64,000 nt of DNA from the NCBI GenBank assembly GCA_964562525.1, contig CAZLTL010000006.1, positions 31,187 through 95,186 of the forward strand, written 5' to 3'. The notes under the pieces are model-generated. The model did not search any database and was not told the DNA's origin. It was given only the letters and a program-made list of their open reading frames with translations. Each line of letters opens with the position of its first letter. Positions within the stretch are counted from its first letter, which is position 1. This document shows, in pieces, positions 937 to 44,800 of this stretch. The position numbers and the translations under genes are program-made. The DNA is from an uncultured bacterium (GTDB taxonomy: Bacteria > Omnitrophota > Omnitrophia > Omnitrophales > Aquincolibacteriaceae).

Positions 937-2433
937 ATGATCCGTCTTCAATCAGTTAAAGTTAGGCTGACGCTTTGGTATGCGCTTGTCTTAAGCGTTT
1001 TTCTCGCCATTTTTTCATTCATGATGTACGCGGAGCTGGCCCGCGCGCTTTATCATGATGCCGAGAAAAATTTAGCTTGGTCGGTTCAAAAAGCGGAAGA
1101 AGCCCTTCAAGCGAAACTGACGGCTCAGCCGAAACTGCTTTCATCTCTTGCAAGGACCTCCCAAGAAGCACTTAAACCTTTTTCGCCGGAAACAGATCAA
1201 GCTCTTCGAAATATCATTTTAGAATGGGAAAAGCAGTCTCTTTTTTTGGCGCGCAGTCAGCACATGTTGCGGATTGTGAATTTTGCGCACGAGGATATTG
1301 TTTCGAATCTCAAAGAATGGGAAAAGGAAATTATCTTTCCCAACTTTGAGCGCGATTCTTTCTTTATGGAATCCGGCGCTTCTTATCAGACCATTCATTT
1401 CAAGAACAAACCTTTCCGTTTGTATTACAAAATGCTGCGAGTTGCGGGGAATCCCGTTGCCGTCGTACAGTCCGCCTACGCGCTTTACGAAACTGAAAAA
1501 ACACTCAAACAGCTTGCGGGGATGATCGCGATTGGTATTCCCTTGGCGGTGCTTTGCGCTTGCTTTGCGGGTTGGTTTTTGGCGCGCCGATTTTTTAAAC
1601 CTGTTGATAGCATGACGAAAGAAGCGAAGCAAATTACCGCCGCGCATCTGGATAGCCGTTTGCCGCGAACCTACATGGGGGATGAAATTGACCGTCTGGC
1701 CGAAACGCTGAATGAGATGATCGACCGTCTTGAGCATTCGACGCGCGCCATGCGTGAATTCAGCTCGGACGTTTCGCATGAGCTTAAAACGCCGCTGGCG
1801 ATTATTCGCGGCGAACTTGATTTGGCGGCGCGCAAGACTCGATCGCGCGAAGAAATTGATAAAATGCTCTTGGTGATCAGTGAAGAAACCGACGAAATGA
1901 TCCGATTGGTCAACGACCTGATGATTTTGGTGCGCAGTGATGCCCGTCAGCTCCGCTTAGATAAGCAGAATCTTCATCTTTTAGAAGTTTTGGAGCCGCT
2001 CGTGGAGCGTTTTCAGGAAAGAGCCCGGCAAAAAGGGATTAAGCTTATTTGGAGTCCTTTGGGGGATGGGGTAATTGAGGCGGATGAAGGCCATTTTAAG
2101 CGGGTGATGAATAATTTAATCGATAATGCTTTAAAGTTTACCGATACCGGCGGAGAAGTGATCGTGGCTTTAGGGCTGCAGGATGATATGGCGATCATTG
2201 AAGTCAAAGACTCCGGTATTGGAATCAGCCCTGAAAATCAGCCAAAAATTTTTATGCGGTTTTTCCGTGACGAATTGGCAAGGTCACGTGAGGGGTCCGG
2301 ATTGGGGCTCAGTATTGTGAAGGCGATTTGCGATGCTCATTTATGGCAAATTGGTTTAGAGAGTGTTCCCGGGCAAGGGACGCTCATTCGTCTTTTTATA
2401 CCCGTGACCCAAACGGCCACTTCATTGAGCTAG
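937..2433 (+). CDS. Sensor histidine kinase: two transmembrane segments flanking a periplasmic sensor domain, then HAMP, HisKA and HATPase_c domains
   Basis: The H-box is SHELKTPLAIIRGELDL. N and G boxes are visible (NLIDNALKFT, DSGIGISPE, GSGLGLSIVK). Transmembrane segments are at about aa 10-30 and 190-215. It lies immediately downstream of the regulator. Confidence 0.9.
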   Translation: MIRLQSVKVRLTLWYALVLSVFLAIFSFMMYAELARALYHDAEKNLAWSVQKAEEALQAKLTAQPKLLSSLARTSQEALKPFSPETDQALRNIILEWEKQSLFLARSQHMLRIVNFAHEDIVSNLKEWEKEIIFPNFERDSFFMESGASYQTIHFKNKPFRLYYKMLRVAGNPVAVVQSAYALYETEKTLKQLAGMIAIGIPLAVLCACFAGWFLARRFFKPVDSMTKEAKQITAAHLDSRLPRTYMGDEIDRLAETLNEMIDRLEHSTRAMREFSSDVSHELKTPLAIIRGELDLAARKTRSREEIDKMLLVISEETDEMIRLVNDLMILVRSDARQLRLDKQNLHLLEVLEPLVERFQERARQKGIKLIWSPLGDGVIEADEGHFKRVMNNLIDNALKFTDTGGEVIVALGLQDDMAIIEVKDSGIGISPENQPKIFMRFFRDELARSREGSGLGLSIVKAICDAHLWQIGLESVPGQGTLIRLFIPVTQTATSLS

Positions 2434-2473
2434 AATCCCTTTACTTTTTCGCTGGGAAGCCGATACTTGCCTT

Positions 2474-2830
2474 ATGGAAAACATACAGTCTCAGCTTATT
2501 AAGCCCTTCGTCGAGAAGATGGAAAAAGAGTGGCAAGCTCTTTACGACAAAATTAGCCAGGAAAAGTCGCAAGAGTCTGATAAGCTCCGCCCCGAAGTCG
2601 AAGACCATCTCGCCAAACTAAAAAAACTCCGCAGTAACGAAGAAATCTCCATGAAGTTATCCTCGACGGGAGAGGAAGCTATTCATGAATTTGTTCGGCA
2701 GTCTAAAATGGAATTTAGGGTGGCTGAGCGCCGCTGGCAACGACATATAGTGTCCCGTGAGCGAGTTAAAACCCGCGCTTCAAATCAATCCGCTAAGTTT
2801 TTGAGCCGCGAAACACCAACAAAAAAATAA
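2474..2830 (+). CDS. Hypothetical small hydrophilic, charged protein of 118 aa with probable coiled-coil character
   Basis: The ORF is intact and co-directional within the signalling cluster. No motif is recognised. Confidence 0.45.
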   Translation: MENIQSQLIKPFVEKMEKEWQALYDKISQEKSQESDKLRPEVEDHLAKLKKLRSNEEISMKLSSTGEEAIHEFVRQSKMEFRVAERRWQRHIVSRERVKTRASNQSAKFLSRETPTKK

Positions 2831-3012
2831 AAATCAAGCGGTTTTTTTTGTCGCCGCCTGGCTCGTCCTCTTTTTGCTTGCCAACGGAATACTTCATTGT
2901 AAGATAACGCCCAAGGTCGGCTGCTTTTTCTGTTATTTTCTATTTTTTTACATCTTTTTTACCGAGAGCCGTCCTCCCTTTATTACTTTTTTTGAGGGAA
3001 GGATTATCATTC

Positions 3013-4689
3013 ATGACGGTTTTAAACCGCGATCAAATTAGCGCTCGTTTGCTGAAGCGTGCTGAAGATTTTGGACGGGGATACCGCCAAAATTTGGCGT
3101 TGCTCGGACGGGTAGGGCTTGGCAAGACGAAGTTGATTGCCAAATTCACGGAAGCCGTCCGCGCGCGTGACTTTCCAATTCTCACAGTGCTCATTGATCT
3201 TGCGCCGGTTTCATCCAGCCAAATCACTTTTTATTGGATACGCTGCCTTTTATCTTCAGCGCTGCACTTACCGGACTCTTCTCTTGATGTTCTCTTGGAG
3301 ACTGCGGATGCCCAAGTTCCCAAAACGGCCAAAGCCGCGCGGCATATTTTAAAATTGTATAAGCAGGGCAATGCCGCTTTGGCCGTGCGCGAGTTGTTTG
3401 CTTTGAGCGGGCAATTAGCCGAAGAAACGGCTCGGAAAGTGGTTTTAATTCTGGATGAGTTTCTCGGTCTTGAGAAATTTGGGGTTCATGATGTTTATTC
3501 CATTTTCGGCAACCGGATGATGATGGAAAAAGAAGTTCTCTTTGTCGTGACCAGCTCGGAGTCCAAAAAATCCCGCGCTATTTTTTCAGAAAAACTCTCT
3601 TTGCTTTTCAGCAACTTTGAAACCATGGATTTACAGTCCTTCGGTTTTAAAGAAATGAATGTCCACATTGACGGACGAGCCTGCGCTTCTTACCTTTCTT
3701 TGCCGGCAAGGCGATTCTTGTTCCGTTTAACGGACGGGGAACCGCGTTATTTGGACGCGATGCTTCGCGCTTTAGATGATTTGGTTTGCACTGATCCGAA
3801 GCGTCAGCTGGGAATTGCCACTTTGTTTGAAACGGTTATGCGGGAAGTGCTTGAGTCGGATGGCCGTATTTCACTTTTGTTTCAAAAAAAAGTGGAGTCG
3901 CTTCCGCGGGGGCTTCGTGAGAGCGAGCATGTTTTGTCCGAAGCGGTGGCTTTGCTCAGCACGGGTCGTGTGAAGCCCGGTGCTTTAGCCGCTGCGCTGG
4001 GACTTAAAATTCCGGAAGCAAAGAAAATGATTACCCGCATGGAAGACGCAGGATGGCTGGTTTCAGGCGGAGCTTCTTATTCATTACGCGATCCGCTTTT
4101 CAGATTTTGGGCGCATGAAGTCTTGCTTCCAAACTGCCAGGGACAGCTTCTTGACGATAAAGCACGCCGCGGCCGCTGGATGCGTCTCTTAGGTTCTATT
4201 TATGAAATGGGATGTGAATCGGATTCCGCTAAAATTGTGACCCAGGTAGAGTCTTTGCTGAAGCAATTTCGCGCCGGAACAACGCAATTAGAAGGGCGCA
4301 AGGTTTACGGAGCCCATTTTCAGGAAATTGCCTGGTCGGTTGTGCAGGAGGGCTGCTGGAGTTTGCGGGCGATTTCGTCTAAAGAGAACCACTTTTATCT
4401 GGCTTCCTGCAGAGAGCTGACGGAAGCGGATATTGAGGAATTTAAAGCCTCCTCGGGCCGCCAAAAGAAGCGTGTTCGCCGGATTTTGGTCGTTGCGGGC
4501 GGGATTGAACAAAATGCCCGTCTTTTGGCCCAACAGTATAAAATGGATATCTGGGATTTGAGGTTCTTTAACCTCCTGCTTGATTTTTACGGCCTCTCTA
4601 AAATTATTGTGGAGAAACGTAATTCGTTGTGGGACAGCGACGGAGCGTGGGCAGGATCCGAAAGTTTGTTTAGTTCGGTTACACAATAA
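3013..4689 (+). CDS. P-loop NTPase (AAA/Arch_ATPase-like) with a large C-terminal domain of unknown function
   Basis: Walker A is LLGRVGLGKTKL and Walker B is KVVLILDEF. The track ORF starts at 2992, but that ATG lies inside the GAGGGAAGG Shine-Dalgarno-like sequence. The ATG at 3013 (MTVLNRDQ) is the better-supported start. Confidence 0.7.
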   Translation: MTVLNRDQISARLLKRAEDFGRGYRQNLALLGRVGLGKTKLIAKFTEAVRARDFPILTVLIDLAPVSSSQITFYWIRCLLSSALHLPDSSLDVLLETADAQVPKTAKAARHILKLYKQGNAALAVRELFALSGQLAEETARKVVLILDEFLGLEKFGVHDVYSIFGNRMMMEKEVLFVVTSSESKKSRAIFSEKLSLLFSNFETMDLQSFGFKEMNVHIDGRACASYLSLPARRFLFRLTDGEPRYLDAMLRALDDLVCTDPKRQLGIATLFETVMREVLESDGRISLLFQKKVESLPRGLRESEHVLSEAVALLSTGRVKPGALAAALGLKIPEAKKMITRMEDAGWLVSGGASYSLRDPLFRFWAHEVLLPNCQGQLLDDKARRGRWMRLLGSIYEMGCESDSAKIVTQVESLLKQFRAGTTQLEGRKVYGAHFQEIAWSVVQEGCWSLRAISSKENHFYLASCRELTEADIEEFKASSGRQKKRVRRILVVAGGIEQNARLLAQQYKMDIWDLRFFNLLLDFYGLSKIIVEKRNSLWDSDGAWAGSESLFSSVTQ

Positions 4690-10983: not shown

Positions 10984-12237
10984 ATGAATAATCTTCCTCC
11001 GGATATCGGAAAAAATGTGGTCGTTCTTGGTTTGGGTGAAAGCGGCTATCAAAGCGCGCTTGAGCTTCAAAAGCTGGGTTTTGATGTTTTTGCCACGGAT
11101 AAATCCGATACGCAAATTTTAAGAGAACGGGTCGATGCTTTGTCACGGAAAGGCGTTCAAGCGGAATGCGGAAAGCATACTTTTGACCGCGTCCAGTCAG
11201 CTGACTGGGTTTTAATTTCTCCCGGTATTCCGCCGCAATCAGAAATTTATCAGGCGCTTTTAAAATGGAAAAAGCCGGTTTACAGCGAAATTGAAGCAGC
11301 CAGTTGGTTTTGCCCTTCAAAAAATATTGTTGCGGTGACGGGCTCATGCGGAAAAACTACCACCGTGACCCTCATTCAAAGAATTTTAAAAGAAGCCGGC
11401 CGTGATGTGGTGTTATGCGGCAATATCGGCAATCCTTGGATCGGAGAATTGTCCAAAATCAAGCCTGAAACTTGGGTCGTTTTGGAAGTCAGTTCTTTTC
11501 AGCTTAAACATTGCCGCAAATTCAAACCCCATATCGGAGTCTTGCTTAATATTCATGCCAACCATCTTGATTGGCATCCTTCTCTTGAAGACTATGCTCA
11601 TTCAAAGTTGAAAATATTTGAAAATTTAGTCAAGCATGACTGGATGCTGCTTCAACAATCAGATGAAAAGCAATATGGTCCGATTCGTTCTTCCTCGACC
11701 AAGCATTATTTAAACCCGGTTGGGCAGGAGAGTTTGCTTGAAAATGCCGCGCGCCAAGTTGCTGAAATTGCGGATATTTCGTTTTCGGTGGTGGAGCATG
11801 TGTTTCGCAACTTTGAAGGGCTTGAGCATCGGCTTGAAAAGTTTTGGGAAAGTGACGGCGTTCAAGCCGTGAATGATTCCAAGTCCACGACACCCGCTTC
11901 GCTCATTTGGGCTTTAGGGCGTTATCCTGATCAGAGTGTGGTCTTGATTACGGGCGGCAGAGTTAAAACGCCCTCTTTCGTGGAGTGTTTGCCCGCGCTT
12001 AAGGCGAAAGCAAAAAAAATTGTTGTGATCGGTGAAGCACAGCCTATGATGCTTCAAGAGTGGGCCGAGCTGAATCCTCATTCCGCCGAGTCGCTTGCCG
12101 CTGCTTGCAAAACCGCATTGGCTTCTGCCCAAAAAGGGGATACGGTCCTTTTTTCACCCGCTTGCTCCAGCTTCGACATGTTCAAAAGCTACATCGACCG
12201 CGGTAATCAGTTTAAATCCCTCATTCGCCAAAGATAA
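10984..12237 (+). CDS. murD: UDP-N-acetylmuramoylalanine--D-glutamate ligase (MurD)
   Basis: The N-terminal Rossmann region is VVVLGLGESGYQSALEL. The Mur ligase P-loop is VAVTGSCGKTTT. It follows mraY as in dcw clusters. Confidence 0.9.
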   Translation: MNNLPPDIGKNVVVLGLGESGYQSALELQKLGFDVFATDKSDTQILRERVDALSRKGVQAECGKHTFDRVQSADWVLISPGIPPQSEIYQALLKWKKPVYSEIEAASWFCPSKNIVAVTGSCGKTTTVTLIQRILKEAGRDVVLCGNIGNPWIGELSKIKPETWVVLEVSSFQLKHCRKFKPHIGVLLNIHANHLDWHPSLEDYAHSKLKIFENLVKHDWMLLQQSDEKQYGPIRSSSTKHYLNPVGQESLLENAARQVAEIADISFSVVEHVFRNFEGLEHRLEKFWESDGVQAVNDSKSTTPASLIWALGRYPDQSVVLITGGRVKTPSFVECLPALKAKAKKIVVIGEAQPMMLQEWAELNPHSAESLAAACKTALASAQKGDTVLFSPACSSFDMFKSYIDRGNQFKSLIRQR

Positions 12238-12434: not shown

Positions 12435-15400
12435 ATGAATAGAGTCCCGAGAATTTACAAGCTAATCGCAGTGTTTACCGCACTTTGCTTAGAGTGCACG
12501 TCCATCTCCATTCCCACTTTGCATGCTCAAACAGTTCCGCAAAATATTCTTTCTGTAAAAAAACTGAATCCTGAGATTCTTAAATTACCGGAAAAGTTTG
12601 GTGAGGTGGTGGAAAGCCATGCGGGAAATGGAAATGTGATTGTGGTGCAGGACGCGCACGCAATTCCGGATGCGCAGAAGAATATCGCGAATGTGATCAA
12701 GTATATGCAGCAAGAGTATGGCGTGGGAACCGTTGCACTTGAAGGTGCGAGCGGCGATCTCGATCCGCAAATCTTCCGCAGTTTTCCTGATAAGAAGCTG
12801 CTGCGAGAAGTGATGAACGGGTACATGAATTCGGGTGAAATCGCGGGCGGTACGGCTGCTGCGATTTTCGACGAAACCACAACGAAGTATGTCGGGGTAG
12901 AAGATTGGGATGTTTATGAAGAAGGTTTGGGGCTTTATCTCTCCGCGATGGATAAGACCGCAGCCATTGAAGCTCAGCTATCTGCTTTGCGTGAAAAGTT
13001 AAACAAGGAAAAAGAAGCGATTTATCCGCGGGCGTTACTTGAAGTTGATCACGAGATCGAAAAGTTTTATGAAAATGCCGCGCAGCTAACGGAACTGATT
13101 AAAGTGTTGGGAGCGATTCAAGCCCCTAAGGCAGGCAGTGAACTTGAAGCGGTGTGGAAGGAAGTTTCGAAAGCCCACAGTCCGGCGACCGGAGGCGAGA
13201 GAAAGGACATAGAGGTTCGTGCTTTAGCAGCGAAGGTCGAAAAGGTGTTAAAGAGCCCAGGGGCGGTGAAAGCGTTTAACAGCCGTAAACAAGAATGGAT
13301 GACAGGTCAGATCAGCGCAGAAGCCTTTGCACTCAATTTGAAAGAGTTTGCTGATCAAAGCGGACTTAATCTTGAGATGTCCTCCGATTTGCTCGGAATG
13401 GTACGAGACCAGCAAACGTTAAAGGGGCTTGAAGGAACCAAGCTGTTTCGGGACTTAGAGATTTATATCCGTGAAGTGAAGATGCAGTTAACGCAAAGAC
13501 AACAGACGGATGTTTCGGTTAGCGGTGTGAATGCTGAGATGTCAGCGATTCGGGCGTTGGATGAACGGACGAATTCACTGCGTGTATTAACGAAGCTATC
13601 AAAACTTGAGTTGTCCCGCCAAGAGTGGACGAATTTATCGGGGAATTTGGTGTTTGAGGCCTTTGCGGCATTGGGATTAAAACAAGAAGACTTTCTGTTC
13701 CACCTCGCTTTTTATCTGAATGCTGAAGAACGCGACCAAATCTTTTTCGATAATCTCAAAGCTTCGGTCACCGGCCTCCGGCCTTCCGTGATTGTGGCCG
13801 GTGGTTTTCACGCGGAAGGAATCACGAGCCGCCTCAAAGAGGCGGGAATGGGCTATGCGCTTGTGATGCCGAAGATCAATCACATTCCTGAAAATAACTC
13901 GTACAAAGCGCAGATGCGCGGGGAAGTGTCGTGGAAAGATTATTTTGAAGTTGAGAACGGTCGCATCCATCTTTACAAGGCGTTTGTGCGCGCAACGCGC
14001 GACAAGCTTGTCGCAGACCGGAGACCGGAGGTCGGAGGGCAGAGTGACTCAGAGCTCCGGACCCCGGACTTAGGCCTATTAAAAGCTTGGCGCGATCAAA
14101 TCATCCGTGATTTATCGGATATGGGGAAGGTGAATCGCGCGGCCTGGTACACACGGTTTATGGATGAAGTGGTGGACGAAAGCCTGAAGCACACCGATGC
14201 CGACAAGCTGATGATCAAAGTCGACAATTTTATCCGCGGTTTGCGCGGACTTGAGAAGAACAATCAAATTGATCAGGCAAATATAGCGGATTTACTCAAG
14301 GCAAGTATGGCGTCACCTGCTGTTACTTCCCCAGCTGTTGTCGGTACCCCGCTGTCGTTTCCGGTTAATCCCGCAAGTGAAGTTACCATGCAAGAAGCAT
14401 GGGCTAGCGTCCGGGAGTCTCTTCCTGTCGCCATAATTAATGCTTCTCCAGCAGATAATACGCAGTTGCAAGAGCAGGTGACGACGATTCAGGCAAATGA
14501 GCCAATTAATTACAGTGGACTCTCAGCTGAGTTTGATGCAGCAGCTATTAAGCAAACGGCCTTACTTAGCAATTTGGTTCGGCGGGTCTCAAGTATTACC
14601 GATGCAGATTTGGAGTATGAGTGGAATGAAATGGGACGACTTCTTCGTTTGGTGAACGGGATGAAAGGAGAGCCCGACCCGCGAGATCCGGAAGCAATTT
14701 TTGGTTCTGAAGAGCGCAATTTTAAACTACCGGTTGCAATGCGTTCCAAAATTGTGCGCAGTTTGAGTGAGCGAATTCAGTTTAAGTTGGCATGGACGCA
14801 TGCTGTAAATACATTTTTGAACGATGCTGAAGGTGTATCCAAGTTGGCAAGCCGGGCTGCCCCTGCATTAAGAGAGAGTAATGATGAGGGCGCGGCTGTT
14901 GAATTTGAAGTTTTGTCTCCTGGACAATTAACGGACGAAGAATTCTACCGTACTCTTTTGGGCGACAACGGAACCGTGAGCAATGGGTTGATTGGTTCGG
15001 GAAATTTAGTAGCAGCTTTTCGACTTGTTACTCAGAAAATGGCCGTCATGATCAAGGCCGGACCCGAAGGAGTTCCCGGTGGATCAAGAGAGCTAATCAA
15101 GCGCGTTCATGCCTTAGATGGAGTCGCTAAAATGATCCGCGATGAAATTACAACAATGCAGCGCTCCGAAGCGCGGGTTAATGAAAATGCGCCGACAGAT
15201 CAGGCGGCACGGGAGGAAGCGCTTGCAACTGATGAGAAGCTGAAAAGGCTTGATGTCACGACTTTCTTTAAAGAGATCCTTAAATCGGAATGGAAGTGGT
15301 TGTTGGTTGGTTTTGTTTTATTAATTTTGAGCACCATGCTCTACGACTTAGTCGCTGTTACTACGGTCGCGCAATTTTTTTTAAAATCTCTGGGGGTGGG

Positions 15401-18400
15401 TGTTGGTTTCTCTTGGGGTGCGATTTTGCTGTTCAATCCTTTGACAGTGCTTACCCATGAATTAGGGCATTTTCTAACCTACCGATTAGTTGGCGGTAAA
15501 TCCGATAACACGTTTGGTTTTAATAGGCACTCCTACTTTTTCAATGCAGATGACATATATAAACTCCCCATATGGAAAGTTCGGATTGTGGATATGGGTG
15601 GGCTTGTGATCAACACAGCTATTTTTGCCACAATTGGTCTTATTTCGTATCTTACTTTGGGCGCGACCCCTGTTCTTATTGCTCTCGCTGGACTTCAACT
15701 TGCTGAATTTATAATGGCTTCCGGTGATTATGAGAAATTCTTCAATGCCAGAGGGTATCAGGCTTTGAGCCTTGATATTGCAAAGTTTCAGGAAGAGATC
15801 AAAAATTACAAACCTGAATTTCATGCAGATGGCACGCGAATATCGGCTGAAGCTGATCGCCCTTTGGATGAGCAAACTCAACGCGAAGCACGGGTGGATA
15901 AAACAGAAGAGGCTTTGAGAAGTGGGGCGTTAACAGTTGAAGGGAAAACGGCGGTTTTTGGCCCTCAGGCGAATAAAGATTTTGCGATAGGAGTAAGCCC
16001 GGAAGTTTCATTTGTGGATTTAGATAAAGCCGATTTTGTAACGAAAGCAGAAACATTTCTCTTTCAATCGCTTTTCTTTGCGGCGGCTTTTTTAAAAATC
16101 CCTGTTGGGAAAGAGCAGAAATTAAATACTTACAAGGAAGTATTTGAAGCGCTTCAAAATGCCAAAGCCGCGGTCAAAAATGCCGGTGGCTTAAGCTTGT
16201 ATGCTGCCCAAGAAAAATTAAAAGAAGCCCAAGCTGAAAAAGATGAGTTTGTGGCTGAAGCTCAAAAGAGAGGTTTTGCCGAGTTTTTGCTTCCGGGTGG
16301 AATTCTAAGCCGCCGCATGGAGATTTTTGTTCCCAATGAAAATCAGCGCGAACGGCTTTTAAAGTATTTAACCTTAACTTTTGTAGGGCAAAGTAAGGAA
16401 TCGCTGCTCTCAGACATTCTGAAAGTGCAGCAAAAATTAGGAGTCACTTTTGATCCGGCGGTTCTTGAGCAGCTTTTAGCCGAGTTTGAATCAAAGCGCA
16501 GCTTCATGTTTCCCGGGGGAGTTTTTGCCGGGAAAATGGATGCAGAGATTCAAGATATTTTTGGTCAATTTATTCAGGTGAAAGTTTTAAGTCAAACCCA
16601 AAGTGTTTCAAGCCCCTCAGTTGGAAATATTCAGCTCAATCTTTCAGGTGCGTTGGTTATGGGGGCAGGCCAATCTGAAGTCGCTGTGGATTGGGATCAA
16701 GTTTTACAGTCAGGAGAATTGGCTCCGGCATGGTCTGAAGCTTTTACTGCACAGCTCAAGAAGGCGCTCATCTTTAAAGATGGGAAACTGCGTGTGTTTA
16801 ATCTCGGGACAGGCGACCCCACCCCGTTTAGCCAGAATCAAGATTACACACATATGGCATTTATTGTGAATGGGAAAATGATTGTTACCGATCCGTCCAT
16901 TCGCAGTATTCGTAATCTTGAGCGTTTGGGATTTTTGGAAAAAGTTGAGGCAATTCATCTGACCCATGTTCACTTTGACCATGTAGGTGGCATTTTAGAT
17001 ATAGCGCGCCGTAAACTCAAAAAATCGGAATCCTTGCCTAAGCTTAAGCTGGTTATGCCGACTGTTGTTGCGCTGCAACTCGAAAGAACTCTTGCTTATA
17101 ACTTTTCCACGATGGCTGATGATTCAAATTATGATTTCAGCCAGCTTGCGCTGGTCAGCGAACTTTTCGATTATCGGGGACCTGAGAAAATCAATAAAAC
17201 GATAGAAATTTCCCAATTACAAGAATCTGCAGAGTTTAAAGGTGTTCAAATTGAACTTGCACCAACGTTTGGACACCCGATTCCAACCTACGGAGTCAAA
17301 TTGATTACTCAAGAGGGTTTGAAGATAGCCTATTTGTCCGATTCAGTGATGCCAACCCCAACGATTAAAGCAGCGGATGGAAAGGCAATCCCTAATCCTC
17401 GATATTCGGAGTTTGTAAGTTACTATGCGGATTCAGATATATTGATTGCTGAAAATGGCGTGCCGGGCGTGCATATTACTCCCGAGCAGCTTGCCGAGGC
17501 TTTCCCTGAGCATATTAATAACGGAACTCTGTTTACTGTTCATTCGTCGGGTCCCCAAGCTCAAAAAGGGTTAATTCGATTTATGCCGGGCATGATCTTG
17601 TCTCCGCTTCAATCGAATCAAAGAAAGCAAGATGTTCAGCAAAGTGCAGCGACGCTCATTGAGAATGAAGCTATTCGAGATTTTTTAAAGTTAAATTTAG
17701 AGTTAGCCCAAGAACTTTCGAGTATGGGAACGAAGGTTTCATTTTCTGAGGGGGAAGTTCTTTTTCAGCAAGGCAACCCGGTTTATGACTTTGATCATGT
17801 TTATATTTCTTTATCCGGCGAAACAATCGTTGAGGGGCCCGGTGCAAAGCGGCTTCCTTCGATTGGAGCTGGGAGATTAATCGGTGAAATGGCGCTTTTG
17901 ACTAAGGCTTTGACGCAAGAACAATATGACCAGATCATGGTAGCCATCGGGAAGGGTAAGGATACGGCAGCGCTCGATTTTTTTGGGAGAGTGACTTACG
18001 ATTTGGTAATCGAAGGGCAGCCTCCTTATCGCATTGTGAATCCAAGTTTTGACTTAGAAATAGAAGCGAAGGAATTGACGGAGGATCAAAAATCAAAGTT
18101 AAAGCCTGTCTTTGATATTGCAAAGTCAGGTAAACCCATTCCGCGATCGGTAACGGTTCGGGCAGGTGCGGGAGCAACTTATTTAGCGATTCCCAAAGAT
18201 GCTTTTTTACAGTTTTTAACACGAATTGATGCGTCAAAAATCGATTCGAGTCGACAAGCATTCATTTCAGCTATTTACGCACAAATTGGCATCAATCTTG
18301 ATTCTCGAAAAAAGATGAGTGAGTTAGCCACTCCCACTCAGAACGAAACAGATGTGGTAAAGGCATCAGCTGATACGTCAGTTCGCTCCGAAGCGCGCGC

Positions 18401-21400
18401 GGATGTTGAATGGTTTAACTGGCGCGTGGACAAACAAGGCAATCCAGTTTCGAATGCCGGGCCTATGAGCGAGCTTGTCACTTTGAATGTTGGTGACAGT
18501 ATCTACTTTGAGGTTCCAAAAAATAAGCCGGGTTTGATCGACTATTACTACCAAGTCGGAATGGAGGGCGAGAATTTTACTTTTCAGCGCTATGAACAAA
18601 GCGGGTCTGTTGCTCAACCTGCTGGTAAGAAAATCGAAATTCCCCGATCACTGCAAACGGATAAGGCCGCTAAAAACAGTGATAACTATCTATTTAGTTT
18701 TCAAGTTAATAATGGAAAACTAATGGTGAGTTCAGGCCAGAAATATGGCTTGCTAAAAAGTAAGGTTAAAAAAGACGGAGCGATTGGTGATAGTAAACCG
18801 AGCGTGCGACGAAAAAAATTTGACGATGCCGCTCGGTCTTATCGTGAAGCATTATCAAAAACAGATTTCCCCAGGTTGAGAAGTTTGTCAGCTGAATTAG
18901 ATGAAAAAATGGACGAAATTTTGGGGGTGGCTACGAATGGTTTATTTCTAATACCGCTTGGTTGGCTTGAAGGACGAATCAAAGAAATGGATGCGGGGTT
19001 GCGTCGAATTGAGAGACATGAGTTATCGGGTCAGGGTAAAGAAGCTTTGGGCTGGGCGATGCAGGTGCTGACGGAACAAATCAATCATTTTCGAAATTCT
19101 GTTGTTGCTGTTAATTTAGAACTCAATCTTTTGACCCAAGGAGAGAAAATTAATTACGATGTTTTTAGTGAGTTGATAGAGAGCTTTCTTCAAACCAACA
19201 GCTTATTTGCATTATCTCAAGAGTTGAATGTTCGCATGCAGTCCTACCCTGAGACAATTGAGTTCAGTTTAAAAAATGTCGATGCCGATTCAAAGATTTC
19301 TGCGCTTAAAAGGCGAATTTTCGATTATGGGCAAGCAACGGCTACTTTGACGCGTCTTGAAGACGCTCGAATATTTTTTGAGAACAGCTGGAAATTGTAT
19401 GATGATCTTGTTGGGTTGATTCAGCAAATGGCATTAGAAATTCAAAGACGTGATGAAACCGAAATGACGATTGAAAGAGGTGCTGAGGCAGCAAAAGAAC
19501 AGCGCAATCAGCTTTGGCGGAGTATTGATTATTATGAAGTGCTAGGTGTTTCTCGAGATGCTTCTCTAGGGGACATAAAAAATGCTTATCGCAGTTTAGT
19601 TCGCGCGGGTAATCATCCGGATAAGGTCGCAGGCGACTCTGCTACGCTAAAAGCAGCTGAAGAGAGATTTAAAGAAATAGGACCGGCATATGAGGTCTTA
19701 AGTAATGAAGTAGACCGCGCTGAATATGACAAAATTCATTTTGCCCGTTCCGAAGCTCGTTCGGTAGACTCAGGGCAAGCGCGGGACTCGTATGAGCGCT
19801 ACAAGCTTTTATCAGGGACTTTGGCAGATTTACCTGACCCTGTATTTGTCAACGATGGGGAAACGATTACTTTGCGGATTCCGCATGATGAAGTCGAAGG
19901 TAGTCAGCCCGAGCTTGATCTTTTGGTTGTATTCAAAAAATTTAATGGGAAGGTGTTTTTTGCCCACCTAGATTCATTTTCAGACTTATCAATGCTTGAT
20001 GAATATTACCGTTCTGCTGATCCTCTTCAGGAAGGTTCTCGAATCAAATGGGAAGAGGTGAACGAGACTTCAGAAGTTGAGATTATAGGTCGTGAGGAGG
20101 AAATGGATAGTGAGGGTACCAAGGTCAAGATTGTTTTTAGTGAACAGGGTTTTACGATTGCCAATGCCTCGATCTCGGATGTTTATTATTTTGAGGGTAA
20201 GCCCGGTCCGGAAATTATTGCTTCCGCTCTTCGGGATAGTTATCTTTCAAGTGCGAGCACAGGTTTGCCCATAGCCACCGAGCCAATTTTTATTGCCGGG
20301 GAGGATGCAACTGAAATTTTTAACTTGGTCACTGAGTTTATTAATCAGGGTCCGTATGTTCCTGCTGCAGGCGAAACCGCTCTCTACACAAAGGTGAAAC
20401 AACAAATTAGGTTGATTACCGAAAGAACCGGCGAAAAGTATCGATTCAACCCGATGATTCAAATAAATGCCTTAAGTGATACTTATAGAGCTTTAAACAA
20501 TTTTCTCATGAATCGATTTACTGACCTGGAAGGCTTGGAAAAAGGTGTGGTCATTCTCAAGCGAATTCCTAATCTTGAGAAGCTGATCGAAGTTTTAAGA
20601 CATTTAATATCAGCTTACGAGCTGGCTTTTAATCACCTTGAGAATTCAACTATTGAGATCGAGGTGGATGAAAAAGAAAACCATCGGCGTCATGCCTTGC
20701 AAATGCTGGTTGAGTTAAAAAAGATTGTTAATTCATATGATTCAATTCCTCCTGCCGAACGACCGCGGGCTGAAATCCAAGGAGAAGTTCGAATGGCAAG
20801 GTTGCCCAGCCAAAAAAACTTTTCCGAGTTCATTTCTTACAATGGCGATAAAATTCCACTTTGGGCAATTAAAAGAATTTATCTGCCGGATAATAGGGTT
20901 ATTCAATTTGGTGAGATTTCTCAGGCTAATAACGAGGATGGTGTGTATGATCGGGAGGATCGCACGAGAGACGTTAGGAATGCCTTGTCACCATTTCCAG
21001 AGAGTGCGGAGATCGTTTTTGAGCTGCAAGATGGCGTTTTATTAAAGCGAATTTTGGAAGCGGAAGAGTATGAGACGATAACGGCAGTCTATCCGGTTGA
21101 TTTTGACCCCAAAGAATTTAGCAGGCTTCCGCACGGAATAGATTTACCGGAGCGGCGGTTTATAAATGCAGTTAACGTGAACGGGTTTATTACCACCCTT
21201 TATGAGTTGGAATCTCTTTTGCCTGAGACTGGGTTAGCCGGCAGGACAGTGACTTTTTTCTATTCCGCGAATAACCATCTTCAAGCCTTCAAAATCAGTG
21301 ATGAAGCTAAACCTCAGTCTGAGCAATATGTTTACTCTCAGTTTCGAAATTCAAGCAATGTTCAGCCTATGTCCGCGCCTTTTTCTGCTCAGGAAACTCA

Positions 21401-23033
21401 AGAAATTGCAAAAAAGGATTTGGTTGACCTATTTGCGGATCTCTTTAATCGCCGTGCGTTGACCTCCGCGCAGAGGGTGGTTCCGTTGAGCGCGCTTATT
21501 CTTCAATTTTTGGCTGTCTCGCTTAACGCTAAGGCTGTTTCAGATTGGGCTCAGGAAGGCAAAGTTCCGCTGTTTGAAGTTGAGTTGGCGAACGAACAAA
21601 CCATTTCATTCAGCGGGCTTAATCCTGCTTTACATCACGATGATGCCGTGCGGATTGAAAGACTGCTATCTCAGATTGACGGGGGATTGGATGCCGCTTC
21701 TTTTCGAATTGTTTTGGCGCCTGCTGGACCGGCTACCCAGTCGAATCAAGCGGGGCAATTTTTTGATCGACCCGGGCGTGGTTTGGATGAGTTCAATGCC
21801 TGGCATAAGTTATCTGATGTCTTGGAACTGTTTTTTCTGTCAGTGGGCGAAACTGGCAAAGACAAGAAATTGGATGCTGCGTCAAAACAAAAACTTTTAG
21901 ATAAACTCGCCGTGCTTGTTGAGGCGATAGCCATGATTCATCCTTCAGTAACAGGAAGTGAAATTTATCATACTTTATATGCTGTCATGGATGCTTCAAT
22001 GTTTAGGGCTAAAAAACTAGATACAGGCAGCAGAATCAATGTTTTGATTAATTTGGCGCGCCAAATCAGAGCCGCTGCGCCTCAAGATCCTCAACAGAGC
22101 ATTTATGTGCAAGGTGAGTTTGAATCAAAATTAAAGACCCCAAACTTAGATCTAAATGAATTGGCAAAAGAGACTGCCCGCTCCGAAGCCCGTTCGGCAG
22201 ACTCAGGGCAAGCGCGGGAGGCTGAGGCGGTTGCGGGAGATGTGTTTGGCTTTTTTAAATCGCCCGCGGATTATTCTGCAGACCAGATAAATACTTTGGC
22301 AGATGAAATTGATACATTGGCTGATAAACAAGGGCTTGATGTTTTTGTGAATCTCTTGCGATCGATAGCTCGAGACTTAGCTGTCGTTAGTGTTCAGGGG
22401 AGCGAAAATATTTTAAGCAAAGAAGCGACAAGTTTTGCCGTGAAACTTTTTGTTGGACGCATGATGGCAGCAAAGCGGCAGTCGACTTTAATAGATGTAA
22501 AAATCGAGAAGCCAACCATTGCTTTAGCATTAAAATTGAATGATGCCCAAAAAGCTTCTCTGGGAGATAAGTTGTCCAGCGAATTGGCTGAAATTCTGGG
22601 TGCGGTTCAGATTGAGGCCAAAGATTTTAAAGAATTAGGTGCGTTTTTTAAGAGCGTAGGGGTTTTAGTGACAACGATTGATCCCGATCTAGCAAACGCA
22701 GTTGTATTAGAAAGTTTTGGTGCGGATTGGAGTGGTTTACCTGCCGTGGGTGTCTTAGAAGAATCGCAGCAATTTGATTCGGAGTTAGAAGGGATGCGTA
22801 TTTATTTGCAGCTTTTGATCGCGGCTTATTTAGCTCGGAGCTTTCCGGATAAGAAAGTAATTTTGACACCCGAGATTGTTGGCGAGATTAATAAGCTGCT
22901 GTTTCAATCTGATGCAGGGCAAGAAGGAATTGTGCAGATACAAAATGGTCAGTTAGTTGTTAAACGAAGCAGTCTGCTGGCATATATTCAAACCTTATTC
23001 GCGGCGCAATCTGCCGTTGCAGTCGCCGCGTAA
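12435..23033 (+). CDS. Giant multi-domain membrane protein (3532 aa): signal peptide, conserved extracytoplasmic N-module, transmembrane cluster carrying HExxH, MBL-fold domain, cNMP-binding-like domain, J-domain and a long C-terminal region. It is inserted between murD and ftsW.
   Basis: This is an uninterrupted 10.6-kb ORF. It has a cleavable-looking signal peptide ([32 protein letters not shown]). Its N-module is paralogous to the two other giant ORFs, and several internal motif matches are listed separately. Confidence 0.85.
12531..13880 (+). other. Shared N-terminal module of giant 1 (motifs QDAHA at 12648-12662, LEGA, and AGGFHAEG at 13797-13820); possible Tiki/TraB/GumN-like fold
   Basis: It aligns by eye with the N-modules of the 1141-aa and 4733-aa ORFs, for example [32 protein letters not shown] versus HIQDAHA..VIKYLNTNYGFKTILVEGAASELDP. 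The xAH...E...GxxHxxG pattern resembles the TraB/GumN signature, which is an inference. Confidence 0.5.
15291..15740 (+). other. Transmembrane cluster in giant 1 carrying an intramembrane HExxH motif (HELGH at 15456-15470) of site-2-protease (M50) type
   Basis: The sequence [24 protein letters not shown], flanked by hydrophobic helices, resembles the RseP/SpoIVFB HEFGHF motif context. Confidence 0.4.
16790..17550 (+). other. Metallo-beta-lactamase-fold domain in giant 1 (HxHxDH at 16956-16991)
   Basis: The MBL motif 2 is a strong match ([12 protein letters not shown]). Downstream there are GHP and D/H positions ([22 protein letters not shown]). Confidence 0.6.
17700..17910 (+). other. cNMP-binding (CAP-family)-like domain in giant 1
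   Basis: The sequence [53 protein letters not shown] matches the G-E-x-F-x-Q-G ... F-G-E-x-A-L-L beta-roll pattern. Confidence 0.45.
19527..19733 (+). other. DnaJ-type J-domain embedded at about aa 2365-2433 of giant 1 (HPD at 19614-19622)
   Basis: The sequence [69 protein letters not shown] shows canonical helix II, the HPD loop and helix III. Confidence 0.8.
19743..19786 (+). repeat. Intragenic 44-nt near-identical direct repeat, copy A; copy B is at 22176-22219 (40/44 identical). Both encode ARSEARS(V/A)DSGQAR, and a shorter related copy is at about 18384-18404.
   Basis: The sequence gcccgttccgaagctcgttcggtagactcagggcaagcgcggga is compared with gcccgctccgaagcccgttcggcagactcagggcaagcgcggga. 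Both contain the internal palindrome ccgaa-N5-ttcgg. Confidence 0.8.
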
Positions 23034-23122: not shown

Positions 23123-24229
23123 ATGTCACGCGAAGGCCGTCTTCTTTTTTGGGCTTCTTTTATCCTTGTCGGATTTGGTTTGGTCATGGTTTATAGCTCC
23201 AGCGCCGTTGTTGCTGCTGAGCAATACAAACATGCTTCCTATTATCTGACACGCCAGGCTTTATTTGCCGGTTTGGGAGTAATGGCTTTCTTTCTCGTTG
23301 CCTCCATTCCGCTGAGTTTTTATAAAGATCACGCGCGCACAATTATGTTTTGCGCCATCGGACTGACTTTGCTTGTCTTCGTTCCTGGTTTGGGCCGTTC
23401 AGCGGGTGGTGCGCGCCGCTGGATTACTTTGGGCGGATTTAATATTCAGCCCGCTGAGTTTGTAAAGCTGGCTGCTTGTATTTATTTAGCCAACTACTTA
23501 TCCCGAAAAGTAACCGTCGTTCAAAAGGGAACTTTAAGTGTTTATATTCCACCCGCAATTTTGATCGGATTGGTGTGCCTCTTGGTTTTGGTTCAGCCCG
23601 ACTTGGGTTCTTTCGCTTTTCTTGTGATTTTGACCAGTTTGGCATTTTTCGTGACTGGTCTTCCGGTCCGCTTCGTTGCTATTGCTTTGGGTGTTTTGAT
23701 TCCTGCGTTTTATTTCCTGATTGTGCGTGTGCCTTATCGTATGAAGCGCCTCGAAGCCTATCTTAATCCTTGGGATGATCCGCAAGGCAAAGGTTTCCAG
23801 ATTATTCAGTCTTTGCTTTCTTTTGCTTTGGGCGGAACCACCGGTGCGGGGCTTGGGCAGGGAACTCAGAAACTTTATTATCTGCCGTCAGGGCACAATG
23901 ACTTTATCTTTGCTGTAATCGGCGAAGAGTTGGGGCTTTTCGGGACTTGTTTTGTTTTGGCCGCTTTTTTGGTGATTTTTTACGCCGTCGTGAAGATCGC
24001 TTCCCGGCGTCAGCAGATTTTTGAAAAACTTCTCGTTTTGCTTTTAGGCTATTACCTCGTTATTCAAGCGATGATTCATATGATGGTGTGCACCGGTTTA
24101 GTCCCTACAAAAGGCTTGCCGCTTCCTTTCATTAGTTATGGTGGCAGTGCTTTAATTGCGAATATGGTGGCGGTGGGGTTGATTATTGCGTGTGACAGAC
24201 ATACCCGAGTCGAATGGAAACCGCAATAA
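23123..24229 (+). CDS. ftsW: Cell-division / peptidoglycan glycosyltransferase FtsW (SEDS family)
   Basis: It is a 10-transmembrane SEDS protein (GLVMVYSSS ... PTKGLPLPFISYGGSA). It occupies the dcw position between murD and murG. Confidence 0.88.
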   Translation: MSREGRLLFWASFILVGFGLVMVYSSSAVVAAEQYKHASYYLTRQALFAGLGVMAFFLVASIPLSFYKDHARTIMFCAIGLTLLVFVPGLGRSAGGARRWITLGGFNIQPAEFVKLAACIYLANYLSRKVTVVQKGTLSVYIPPAILIGLVCLLVLVQPDLGSFAFLVILTSLAFFVTGLPVRFVAIALGVLIPAFYFLIVRVPYRMKRLEAYLNPWDDPQGKGFQIIQSLLSFALGGTTGAGLGQGTQKLYYLPSGHNDFIFAVIGEELGLFGTCFVLAAFLVIFYAVVKIASRRQQIFEKLLVLLLGYYLVIQAMIHMMVCTGLVPTKGLPLPFISYGGSALIANMVAVGLIIACDRHTRVEWKPQ

Positions 24230-41846: not shown

Positions 41847-44800
41847 ATGAGATCAGTTAAGCACAAAAGTAAACGGTGGGTAGCGCTTGGAGCGTGTATT
41901 TGCTTTGTTGCCACGCTCTTTCCCGACGCTCATGCCGCGCTGCCTTCGATTGACATGGCGGTTAAGGCCGAAACTCCTCGTGTTCTTAATATTGACATTC
42001 CCACTGAATTAGCCACAGTCGATGAGTGGTATCAGGCTCCTTCAAAATCCAAGCCGAAACTGATTGTGCATATTCAGGATGCTCACGCGAATTATGAAGC
42101 TCAAACCAAGATTCGTGATGTGATTAAGTATCTCAATACGAATTACGGTTTTAAAACAATTCTCGTTGAAGGCGCGGCAAGTGAGCTGGACCCGAATATT
42201 CTTAAGCTTTTTCCGGATCAAGACCGCAATTTAAAACTTGTCGACGAGCTTGCCAAAATCGGTGAGGTCACCGGCGCGGAAATGTTTTTGGTTGAAAACA
42301 GTGATGCCGCAAAAGGGATGGGGATTGAGAAGCCGGAGCTTTATCGCAAGAATTTTGACGCGCTTCAAAAAGTTTATTCCGAAGATGAGTTTGTCAGCGG
42401 ATTTTTCGAAGCTTATGAAAAAAAATTAGGACAAATTTCATCGCGAAGTTTTGGCCCGCGCATGATCCAAGCTTTGGCCGAATGGCGTAAATTTGAGAGC
42501 GGGCATCGTGATTTTTTACCATTTGTATCTAAGCTGGCGGAGCTTTCCAAGAAAGTTTTAGAGATGGATCTCGGTGTTCTTTACTCGCAGATTGAGTGGC
42601 CGCAATTAACACGTTTGTTGGTTCTGCAGCGTGTTGAAAAAGAATTAGAGCAGACTCATGACAGACGACCAACGACTGACGTCGAAGAAGGTGCTCAGCG
42701 TTCAGCCCTTAGTGTCAAACAACAAGCGGAACTGGAAAAACAGAACATCATCGATTTGATGAAAGTTGCTCAGTCGCCGGAAGGATTGATTCGAGGACTG
42801 GAGAACTTTAATGAGAAATCAGCTAATCTCAACCGCATTGGATCTTCCGAAGTTCGCCAGGCAAGTGCGCCGCGCGCTTTGATGGAGGCGTTGGTGGAAG
42901 AGGGTGCTAAGTTCGGTTTGAACATTCGCGATTATCCTGCTTTTGCCAAATACGCTGGCTATTTGATTCTTCGCGGCGAAATTGTGCCCGCAGAGTTATT
43001 TGAAGAAATTAAAAAGCTATTTGACCTCATTCTTGAATCTCTCGTGAAAGAAGCACCTTCTGCAGCAATGGAGTCAACGGATGATTTAGCCGCTCGCAAA
43101 CGTCTGCTTTTACTGCATCGTGATGAAATGCTGGCGCGCAAACTCCTTAAGCTTGAATTAACCCACGACGAGTGGCTGGCGGTGCTGAATAGACAAGATC
43201 GCTTTTATCCTGATGATTTGAATCGCCGTATGCTTGAACAACTGGGACAAAATACCCGAGTTAAAGAAACCGGCGGGGAAGAAGCCTCGCAAATGAAAAA
43301 ACTCAATGAAGCCTTTCGTGCCGCATTCACTTTCTATTCCGCTGCGGTGAATCGTGACACTTTCTTCTTTCAGCGTACGCAAGAAGTTTTAGCGCAAACC
43401 GACAAAGCCATTTTGATTACCGGAGGTTTTCACGCGGAGGGAATGAAGTATTTCTTTAGAAAATATGACATCAATTACGGAACTCTCACTCCACGCATTA
43501 CCCAAGAGTTCACCAACGAACAATACCGTAAGGTGATGATGACCGGCGTCGAGAAAAACAAAGCGGAGATTACGCAGCAGCTACAGGAAGGATCTTCAGC
43601 GGTGGAGGAGAGCGACACTCCAAAGTCTAAAAAAGCTGCGAAAGAAAACTATCTTGGTGCGGAAAGTCTTATTGATCCTCTAAGTGATGGTTTAGTTGGT
43701 GGGACAAGATCTGAAGTGCGGAGAAATATAGTTCAAATGTTAGCGGTTTCATTGGGCTTACCGAAAATTCAACAAGAAACCTCTTTAGCTGCGCCCGCGC
43801 AGGTGGCCGTTTCACGTCAGCCGAGATCGATCGCAGTACGATTCGAAAGTGTTTCTGCTCCTCAGGGCTTTTTATCTGTCCTAGAGGGGCAGCGAGCTTT
43901 AATTGGTGCGGGTATTGGGATTTTTGGTCTGGTTGCAGCGTATTTAGCCGCGTTATCCTCTCCAATTTTGTTGATTCTGGCGATTCCTTTTACTGCCAGT
44001 GGAATGATTTATGGATTCGATCAATATTTTAAAGCGCAATATTTGATTTCGAATGCCACCAAAGCCGGAAGTGTTGAATTAACCGATAGGCTTGCTACTT
44101 CTAGTCAAACAGAGGTTCCAGTTGTTGTGCAGCGAACGGAGGTTGCGCAAGTGGATGCGGAGCCGCTCACTTTCACTTCTGTTTTAACAGAGTTGGAAGT
44201 TGAAAGAGCGAAGTCTGAGCCAGATGCAGCGCGTTTGGCTGATTTGGTTGCCCAGTTGGTTGATTTAGCCGGTGACATTGAAGAGGCTAAACAAGCTCAG
44301 AATGTACTACGAGATTTAAGAGTTAAATACAAGAATCAGTTGAATCCGTCGCAATCAACCAACCTGATCATGAAAGTAGCACAACTCGCTGTGAAGTTGA
44401 ATCAATTCCAACAAGCTCAAAAATTATATGAGAGGGAGGAGATTGTTGTAACAGCGAAAGCTCCGCGCGAAGCTATTTTTGCAGCTCTTTCTCCGGAGGA
44501 CAGAGGGATTTTAAAGAGGATGGCGTTTGATGATTTAGAGAATCAAATTATTGACGCAAAAGACTTGTCCGCATCGCAAGCTGTGGCTATTTTGATTACT
44601 TACGGATTTATTTCCGATAAGGACCGCAATGCCGCCAAAAACTTAGCGATATTGGCTTCACTGGCTGTCACCAAGATTGCGCCTCAAAGGGTTTCGGAAT
44701 TGGCGGAAATGGTACGAGCCTTTTTCCCGGAAATGGTCTCATCGGACTTGGGTTATTTAGGCCGAATTATTGATGCGAATGGCATCGGAAACAAGTTAGA

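Follow-up and report, generated by a model that had tools for sequence, protein, structure and literature searches.

A putative, highly divergent site-2-protease-type module within a giant protein of an uncultured Omnitrophota bacterium

Is a membrane block buried in a very long protein, encoded in the middle of a cell-division cluster, an intramembrane protease, or does it carry a zinc-binding motif by accident? This question is raised by a 64,000-nucleotide stretch of DNA from an uncultured bacterium of the Omnitrophota (GenBank assembly GCA_964562525.1, contig CAZLTL010000006.1, positions 31,187 to 95,186 of the forward strand; here referred to as the window), in which an open reading frame (ORF) encoding 3,532 amino acids (aa) lies between murD and ftsW. 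A preliminary description of the window had noted a HELGH sequence among four to five hydrophobic helices in this ORF (here referred to as giant 1), likened it to the site-2 proteases (S2Ps) of family M50, and suggested that it might free a cytoplasmic C-terminal portion by autoprocessing. We propose that aa ~953 to 1100 are probably a zinc-metalloprotease domain of the intramembrane kind, a minimal and highly divergent member of the S2P clan (MEROPS clan MM), of the small four-helix type represented by DUF3267/TmcP and YydH/EpeP. The parts of this proposal differ in strength: true homology to the S2P clan is likely, the case for catalytic activity is about evenly balanced, and we consider it rather unlikely that the module cleaves its own polypeptide. 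The parts of the module are as follows.

15291-15482, plus strand: hydrophobic block 1 (aa 953 to 1016), two (possibly three) helices by hydropathy, the last ending in HELGHFLTY
15456-15470, plus strand: HELGH (aa 1008 to 1012), with H1008 and H1012 as proposed zinc ligands and E1009 as proposed catalytic residue
15483-15584, plus strand: loop of 34 residues (aa 1017 to 1050), six of them Lys or Arg (K/R), aligning with the HExxH-to-PLGG region of M50 proteins
15585-15659, plus strand: predicted transmembrane helix 3 (TM3; aa 1051 to 1075), whose DMGG aligns with PLGG of RseP-type proteins
15669-15719, plus strand: predicted TM4 (aa 1079 to 1095, 17 residues), from hydropathy, inside the DUF3267 alignment
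15726-15728, plus strand: D1098, which follows H1008 at a distance of 90 residues and may be the third zinc ligand

The HELGH module and its nearest families

The HELGH site is real: positions 15291-15740 correspond to aa 953 to 1102 in the frame of the ORF at 12435-23033. HELGH is the sole HExxH in the 3,532 residues, where ~0.04 would be expected from the His and Glu content, and it ends a hydrophobic stretch (aa 986 to 1016), eight residues before R1017 (in RseP, compare H22 to R30). By Kyte-Doolittle hydropathy, the sequence is continuously hydrophobic from aa 955 to 1006 and on through HELGH to Y1016, and a second hydrophobic part (aa 1051 to 1095) holds TM3 and TM4, separated by GATP. 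Both numbers of helices that had been given, four and five, are allowed by this profile. No other membrane block is present in giant 1; elsewhere only the signal peptide reaches a hydropathy of 1.6, and from aa 30 to 950 the value never rises above 1.14.

The M50 assignment, for which a match to Peptidase_M50 (PF02163) had been named as the check, did not hold up. The module scored 14.1 bits (E 0.03) over 31 residues against a cut-off of 27.2 bits, and one of six shuffles that kept HELGH and the composition of each helix did as well (13.1 bits, E 0.06), so that this match carries no information beyond the motif. The LDG-type second motif of M50 proteins was likewise missing. There is no NxxPxxxLDG in aa 1051 to 1120; the triple change D1098N/K1101P/R1106D, which writes the motif in, gave 14.2 bits with PF02163 and an M50 alignment that was no longer than before. 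No PDZ or CBS domain was found in a Pfam scan of the whole of giant 1 at E values up to 1.

Two other families matched the module and none of its controls. The NCBIfam model NF058609 (YydH/LiaK epipeptide maturation metalloprotease) matched aa 956 to 1081 (126 residues) with 31 bits and an E value of 1.9e-7, covering profile positions 55 to 182 of 246 and ending before TM4, and it matched none of nine controls (eight segment-wise, HELGH-keeping shuffles and the reversed sequence). The Pfam model DUF3267 (PF11667, "putative zincin peptidase") matched aa 1004 to 1099 with 19.8 bits and an E value of 1.1e-3 over 91 of its 108 positions (4 to 94), with 0 of 7 controls matching. The nearest families are therefore YydH/LiaK (EpeP) and DUF3267 (TmcP) rather than the RseP/SpoIVFB type to which the module had been assigned.

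We inferred the content of these alignments from the score changes that followed mutation of residues or segments in the query. H1008A abolished both Pfam matches, to DUF3267 (baseline, 19.8 bits) and to PF02163. With DUF3267, D1098A cost 3.3 bits and shortened the alignment to profile position 78, a loss that points to D1098 lying at a conserved position of the profile. D1053A raised the score by 3.1 bits, while E1091A/D, E1100A/D, P1079A, and R1106D all stayed within ±0.7 bits. E1091, E1100, and R1106, considered as third ligands, thus received no support from the query mutations. As for the conserved distal proline, P1079A was without effect, and aa 1046 to 1120 hold no other proline.

With NF058609 (baseline, 31.0 bits), changing HExxH to AAxxA lowered the score to 16.6 bits (a loss of 14.4) with the alignment span unchanged. 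Shuffling of the loop (aa 1013 to 1050) abolished the match and shuffling of TM3 left 18.7 bits (a loss of 12.3), while shuffling of TM2 and TM1 left 25.1 and 29.8 bits, respectively. Smaller losses followed from G1028A/F1029A (27.3 bits, a loss of 3.7), G1055A/G1056A (27.7 bits, a loss of 3.3), R1017A/G1020A/G1021A (27.5 bits), and N1060A (28.4 bits, a loss of 2.6). These losses indicate that the similarity rests on HExxH, the loop that follows it, and TM3, with about half of the score lying outside HExxH and being sequence specific to the loop and TM3. In S2Ps, the loop after HExxH and the third helix are part of the enzyme core, and the motifs of the loop and TM3 form the substrate-binding region.

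Pairwise comparison gave a similar picture. The resemblance to RseP that had been pointed out is genuine, since E. coli RseP has HExGHFxxxRxxG where the module has its HELGHF stretch. In a tblastn search of 72,556 plasmids, the module obtained weak matches only (E 0.2 to 9); 6 of the 11 records were annotated as M50, S2P, or RseP, and Pfam confirmed three as Peptidase_M50/M50B. An M50 protein of Chondrinema aligned over 122 residues at 32% identity, covering HExxH, G-K-x-x-N, FGF, AD, KL-x-WK, GG, and LxINTxIF, and an RseP of Sphingomonas aligned over 63 residues at 35% identity, with TFGFNR paired with SIGFGR. In RseP, the loop between HExxH and PLGG is the GFG beta-hairpin region; in the Sphingomonas alignment, the 12-residue stretch on the DMGG side of the module pairs with WKIGWLPLGGYV, and by this alignment of sequences a putative hairpin might be placed in the module. 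Both alignments have HExxH, G-K-x-x-N, FGF, WK, and GG in order, and for both targets the Smith-Waterman score lay above those of all 300 segment-wise shuffles, with z values of 5.5 to 7.8; choosing the targets for being the best matches inflates these values. One weak M50-type match, on a Staphylococcus haemolyticus plasmid (1471-3165, "site-2 protease family protein"), is another small S2P-type protease in a peptide-maturation setting, its gene sitting immediately ahead of those for a type 2 lantibiotic precursor and lanM.

The order and spacing of the core are those of the S2P clan: first a helix with HExxH at its end, next a basic loop carrying FGF...DMGG, then a third helix, a short fourth helix, and an Asp at +90. 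In the mechanism that we envisage, H1008, H1012, and D1098 would bind zinc, and E1009 would activate water as a general base at the interface of membrane and cytoplasm. The domain would be both the membrane anchor and the peptide-cleaving unit of giant 1, and it would stand between an exported head and the cytoplasm-type metallo-beta-lactamase-fold (MBL), cyclic-nucleotide-binding (cNMP-binding), and J domains.

Among the closest described systems is DUF3267, a four-helix minimal branch of the S2P clan in which 88% of members have four transmembrane helices; its member TmcP structurally matches mjS2P and needs both H68 of its HEYMH and the distal D158 to remove leader peptides within the membrane (bioRxiv 10.64898/2026.05.31.729130, PMC13252029). 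Like these proteins, the module has an HExxH that ends a transmembrane helix, two further helices, a distal Asp, and no PDZ or CBS domain, and the 90 residues from H1008 to D1098 are matched by H68 to D158 in TmcP. It differs in its score (19.8 against a cut-off of 27.1 bits), in that a search for the conserved proline where it would be expected gave no candidate (P1079A having no effect), and in its setting: DUF3267 proteins are small and stand alone in peptide-maturation operons, whereas the module is internal to a 3,532-aa protein in a division cluster. The family of YydH/EpeP, from the epeXEPAB operon of Bacillus subtilis (PMC7026026, PMC12871923), and LiaK is the best scoring one, its alignment taking in both helices that precede HExxH as well as the loop and TM3. 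In contrast to its members, the module reaches 31 of 225 bits with an alignment that ends before TM4, and no radical-SAM epimerase, precursor peptide, or ABC transporter is encoded near giant 1. The nearest known relatives remove leader peptides from precursors associated with the membrane, but no gene for a precursor peptide, transporter, escort protein, or modifying enzyme was found near giant 1, which makes peptide maturation an unlikely role for the module.

With RseP, SpoIVFB, and mjS2P, the module shares HExGHFxxxRxxG and, as aligned, an FGF stretch and then a hydrophobic stretch ending in GG (the HExxH-to-PLGG region of RseP). It is unlike them in that PF02163 scores no better than with a shuffle, that NxxPxxxLDG, PDZ, and CBS are missing, and that the pairwise score with E. 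coli RseP is not significant. Within the Omnitrophota, giant proteins of >30,000 aa carry soluble C39 (cysteine) and S8 (serine) peptidase domains, and their self-cleavage has been raised as a possibility (bioRxiv 10.1101/2023.11.21.568195). These proteins resemble giant 1 in having a protease-type domain within a very long protein with a signal peptide and transmembrane helices; their peptidase domains, however, are soluble, and that of giant 1 is predicted to be of intramembrane type. Neither of two papers on Omnitrophota giant proteins, this one included, mentions an intramembrane metalloprotease module.

Competing explanations and membrane topology

Several observations weigh against an S2P-clan protease. 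The module lies below every curated cut-off, with 14.1 of 27.2 bits for PF02163, 19.8 of 27.1 bits for PF11667, and 31 of 225 bits for NF058609 (an equivalog model), although even TmcP, an experimentally validated DUF3267 member, reaches no more than 26.5 bits with the Pfam model, so that low scores are normal in the minimal S2P branch. The module lacks the canonical NxxPxxxLDG with its proline, TM4 is only 17 residues long with D1098 three residues beyond its hydrophobic part, and in one pairwise alignment the place of the canonical Asp is taken by R1106. With E. coli RseP, a target that had not been selected for being a best match, the z value was 1.0. A single-sequence AlphaFold2 (AF2) model of aa 921 to 1142 has helices at aa 954 to 985 and 990 to 1018 with low confidence; its mean predicted local distance difference test (pLDDT) score of 51 makes it unusable as fold evidence, and a Foldseek search with it returned nothing meaningful.

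A further point is the lack of relatives. An exhaustive phmmer search of 1.84 billion representative sequences with the module returned only giant 1 itself as a relative, and the giant 1 protein is a singleton cluster among these representatives. (One summed phmmer match, to an insect-type chitin-binding repeat protein, was rejected on inspection as spurious.) Nothing was found by word-indexed homologue searches with the module (E limits of 0.01 and 10), by scanning metagenomes with aa 901 to 1300, or by searching PDB sequences with the module. The giant protein of the closest genome found (UBA2337; see below) has, past its head, at least 2,600 residues with neither similarity to giant 1 nor an HExxH membrane module. 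Across these searches, the S2P-like module is a sequence orphan.

These points bear unequally on the explanations that compete with ours. That an HExxH arose by chance in an ordinary multi-pass membrane anchor would fit the family scores below the curated cut-offs and the proneness of hydrophobic segments to spurious profile matches. The controls largely refute it: sequences with the same helices, composition, and HELGH matched NF058609 in 0 of 9 and DUF3267 in 0 of 7 cases, only 0.04 HExxH would be expected in the whole of giant 1, about half of the NF058609 score comes from outside HExxH and depends on the sequence of the loop and TM3, and the weak tblastn matches are enriched for M50/S2P genes. 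We regard chance as highly improbable. A canonical M50 protease like RseP or SpoIVFB, which would free the cytoplasmic MBL/cNMP/J portion by regulated intramembrane proteolysis, draws on the HEFGHFxxARxxG-like motif, on an FGF/GG loop that aligns with RseP-type proteins, and on the weak PF02163 match. However, that match spans 31 residues and is nearly equaled by a shuffle that keeps HELGH, adding an NxxPxxxLDG in silico does not extend it, and neither a PDZ or CBS domain nor a significant score with E. coli RseP supports it. In addition, the known S2P substrates are separate proteins, and we know of no S2P that cleaves in cis. This explanation, too, is improbable, if less so than chance. The earlier assignment to the S2P type thus survives in part: profiles and mutations argue for homology to intramembrane HExxH metalloproteases beyond the motif, and it is the canonical M50 identity that they do not support. 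Nothing specific speaks for autoprocessing.

The main rival is a degenerate pseudoprotease, in which catalysis would have been lost and the S2P-like fold would now serve just to anchor the protein in the membrane or as a scaffold. The missing third-ligand motif and proline, the short TM4 with D1098 outside its hydrophobic part, and the alignment that sets Arg at the Asp position all fit such a protein, as does the occurrence of an orphan in a tail that is cassette-like, changes fast, and bears no resemblance to its counterpart in the nearest relative. Against it, the H, E, and H of the motif are all intact, an Asp occupies the conserved DUF3267 position at the spacing of the active TmcP, and the loop and TM3 motifs, which correspond to the S2P substrate-binding region, are retained. 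On balance, we hold a pseudoprotease to be doubtful, though the most credible of the rivals, and favor the divergent minimal protease.

Topology adds a constraint to the protease that we favor. Counted in order along the membrane block, the flanks and loops hold 6, 1, 6, 0, and 2 K/R residues, which suggests that the HExxH loop and the C-terminal flank are cytoplasmic; to our knowledge, the HExxH loop is cytoplasmic in all characterized S2Ps. A cytoplasmic C-terminal part is also favored by the intact HPD (J domain), HxHxDH (MBL domain), and cNMP-binding motifs. With a Sec signal peptide and four passes, however, both large flanks would end up outside the cell. The cytoplasmic location of the C-terminal part, as given in the preliminary description, therefore conflicts with a plain four-pass arrangement behind a Sec signal and needs an odd number of passes. 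The most economical predicted topology has five passes, with three in aa 955 to 1016 and two in aa 1051 to 1095. The active site and the last 2,400 residues would then both be cytoplasmic, which would reconcile them with an exported head. It is a tight arrangement, with three helices in 62 residues, which counts against it.

S2P-clan enzymes are known as free-standing membrane proteins whose targets are other proteins or peptide precursors. An S2P-clan domain inside a multidomain giant, beside cyclic-nucleotide-type and chaperone-recruiting domains and in a division cluster, would be a new setting for S2P chemistry. If active, the module would offer a handle on how the long proteins of Omnitrophota are anchored and perhaps cut. 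Its practical value is limited for now because, with no detectable relatives, nothing can be learned from conservation.

The giant protein and its place in the division cluster

The surroundings of the module, within giant 1 and at its locus, are as follows.

10984-12237: murD, upstream neighbor of giant 1
12435-23033, plus strand: giant 1, an uninterrupted ORF of 3,532 aa between murD and ftsW
12435-12527, plus strand: predicted Sec-type signal peptide (aa 1 to 31), with MNRVPRIYK, a hydrophobic core, and PTLHA before the predicted cleavage point and Q after it, as read from the sequence
12567-14372, plus strand: conserved, predicted exported head domain (aa ~45 to 646), with invariant Q72-D-A-H75 and E103 and near-invariant G456-G-F-H459
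16845-17366, plus strand: MBL domain (aa ~1471 to 1644), with HVHFDH
17736-17915, plus strand: cNMP-binding domain (core, aa 1768 to 1827), cNMP_binding 30.0 bits, cut-off 27.5
19527-19730, plus strand: J domain (aa 2365 to 2432), DnaJ 63.4 bits, with HPD intact and RSEAR directly after it
23123-24229: ftsW, downstream neighbor of giant 1

The genes around giant 1 are in the order of a division and cell-wall (dcw) cluster: murE, murF, mraY, murD, giant 1, ftsW, murG, murC, murB, ddl, ftsQ, and ftsA. At 10.6 kb and in the orientation of its neighbors, giant 1 interrupts an otherwise standard cluster (window 6999-30645). The gaps that flank it measure 198 and 89 nt; a promoter and terminator scan of giant 1 and its flanks found nothing above chance, and the gaps contain no terminator-like site.

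The N terminus of giant 1 belongs to a family. A head domain of ~600 aa is common to giant 1, a second giant in the window (giant 2, head at 45438-47400), the ORF at 41847 (head at 41847-43700), and 25 other proteins, those with a source name being labeled Omnitrophota/Omnitrophica or only "bacterium". All 11 family N termini inspected have the n-region, h-region, and AxA layout of textbook Sec signal peptides, which argues that the head domain is exported. The membrane module is absent from all 25 of the other head-domain proteins and from both paralogues in the window. An AF2 model of the head domain, built from a 27-sequence alignment, reached a pLDDT of 81.6, and a Foldseek search of the PDB with this model found nothing significant. 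The matches of highest probability, not significant, were 3b55 (probability 0.21) and HopBA1 5t09 (probability 0.28), which we take to belong to the EreA/ChaN/Tiki superfamily; the motifs DAH...E...GGFH fit, although a link of this superfamily to the head domain is not thereby established. No Pfam or NCBIfam model matched the head domain, and a profile search of PDB sequences with it found nothing.

In the closest genome found, UBA2337 (MurD 89% identical), a giant ORF also follows directly after murD, and its first 646 residues are 75% identical to those of giant 1 (12435-14372 of the window against 1418-3370 of the UBA2337 locus). In a more distant relative (MurD 77% identical), ftsW follows directly after murD. 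The unrelated tails at the same murD position suggest that the tail of the giant has been swapped between close lineages. By comparison of these sequences, the conserved head of giant 1, predicted to be exported, is followed by a variable tail, and it is in this tail that the protease-like module lies. RelA/SpoT-like and NUDIX segments, suspected by eye in the tail of the UBA2337 giant, were rejected, Pfam finding nothing at E values up to 1e-3. The GC content of giant 1 falls from ~0.48 to 0.51 over the head and linker to ~0.42 to 0.44 over the rest, with the shift at nt 15000-15300, near the first RSEAR and just ahead of the membrane module.

Of the domains in the tail, the MBL region scores 23.9 bits with Lactamase_B (above its cut-off), 26.1 with Lactamase_B_2, and weakly (19.2) with Apyc1. 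The Apyc1 (anti-Pycsar, cyclic-nucleotide) match, at ~19 bits, is far below its cut-off, and the MBL domain adjoins the cNMP-binding domain. These two neighbors (16845-17915) could form a hydrolase-sensor pair for cyclic nucleotides.

RSExR junctions and other genes of the window

A short motif, RSEAR, recurs four times in giant 1, each time at an apparent domain junction.

15162-15176, plus strand: RSEAR copy 1 (aa 910 to 914), 45 residues before the membrane block
18384-18398, plus strand: RSEAR copy 2 (aa 1984)
19746-19760, plus strand: RSEAR copy 3 (aa 2438), extended to 14 residues
22179-22193, plus strand: RSEAR copy 4 (aa 3249), extended to 14 residues

Copies 3 and 4 extend to ARSEARS[VA]DSGQAR. 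In the more general form RSExR, the motif occurs 44 times in 29 head-domain proteins against 0.83 expected, and 0 times in 10,365 residues of other genes of the window. The first RSExR usually stands at aa 615 to 720, immediately behind the head domain. There are nine copies in giant 2, one in the ORF at 41847-45272 (at aa 621), and copies at aa 1172, 1188, and 2811 in the UBA2337 giant. RSExR is therefore tied to the head domain and not to the S2P-like module, which is present only in giant 1. A literature search for the exact string RSEAR found nothing.

Judged from its distribution, RSExR looks like a family-wide candidate processing site or cassette-junction motif, and it may be a more general lead than the module. 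The junctions make it worth testing whether these proteins are polyproteins. At its fullest, such a scheme would have an undescribed family of modular Omnitrophota polyproteins with a Sec signal, a ~600-aa head, and swappable cassettes at RSExR junctions, in which an S2P-like cassette would anchor and cleave the chain and free the MBL/cNMP and J cassettes in the cytoplasm. We consider this a long shot; if true, it would amount to self-contained regulated intramembrane proteolysis within one polypeptide. RSExR as a processing motif would also make the module less necessary as a processing enzyme.

Giant 2 (45438-59639; 4,733 aa), a paralogue of giant 1 at its N terminus, contains about eight hydrophobic helices grouped into several blocks and no HExxH; its only match is a weak one to a nucleotidyltransferase near aa 4090. 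Two further HExxH proteases had been described at the end of the window. The gene at 63025-63999, cut by the window end, encodes a signal peptide and TPR repeats, followed by HELTH and LHEGFA, two motifs that together look like those of a soluble zincin. Pfam found only TPR repeats and no peptidase family in the 325 aa that lie within the window, so the "peptidase-MA-like" label draws on the motif and on no family match. The M48 gene at 61904 is borne out, with Peptidase_M48 at an E value of 5e-34, M48_N, and HELGH at aa 238.

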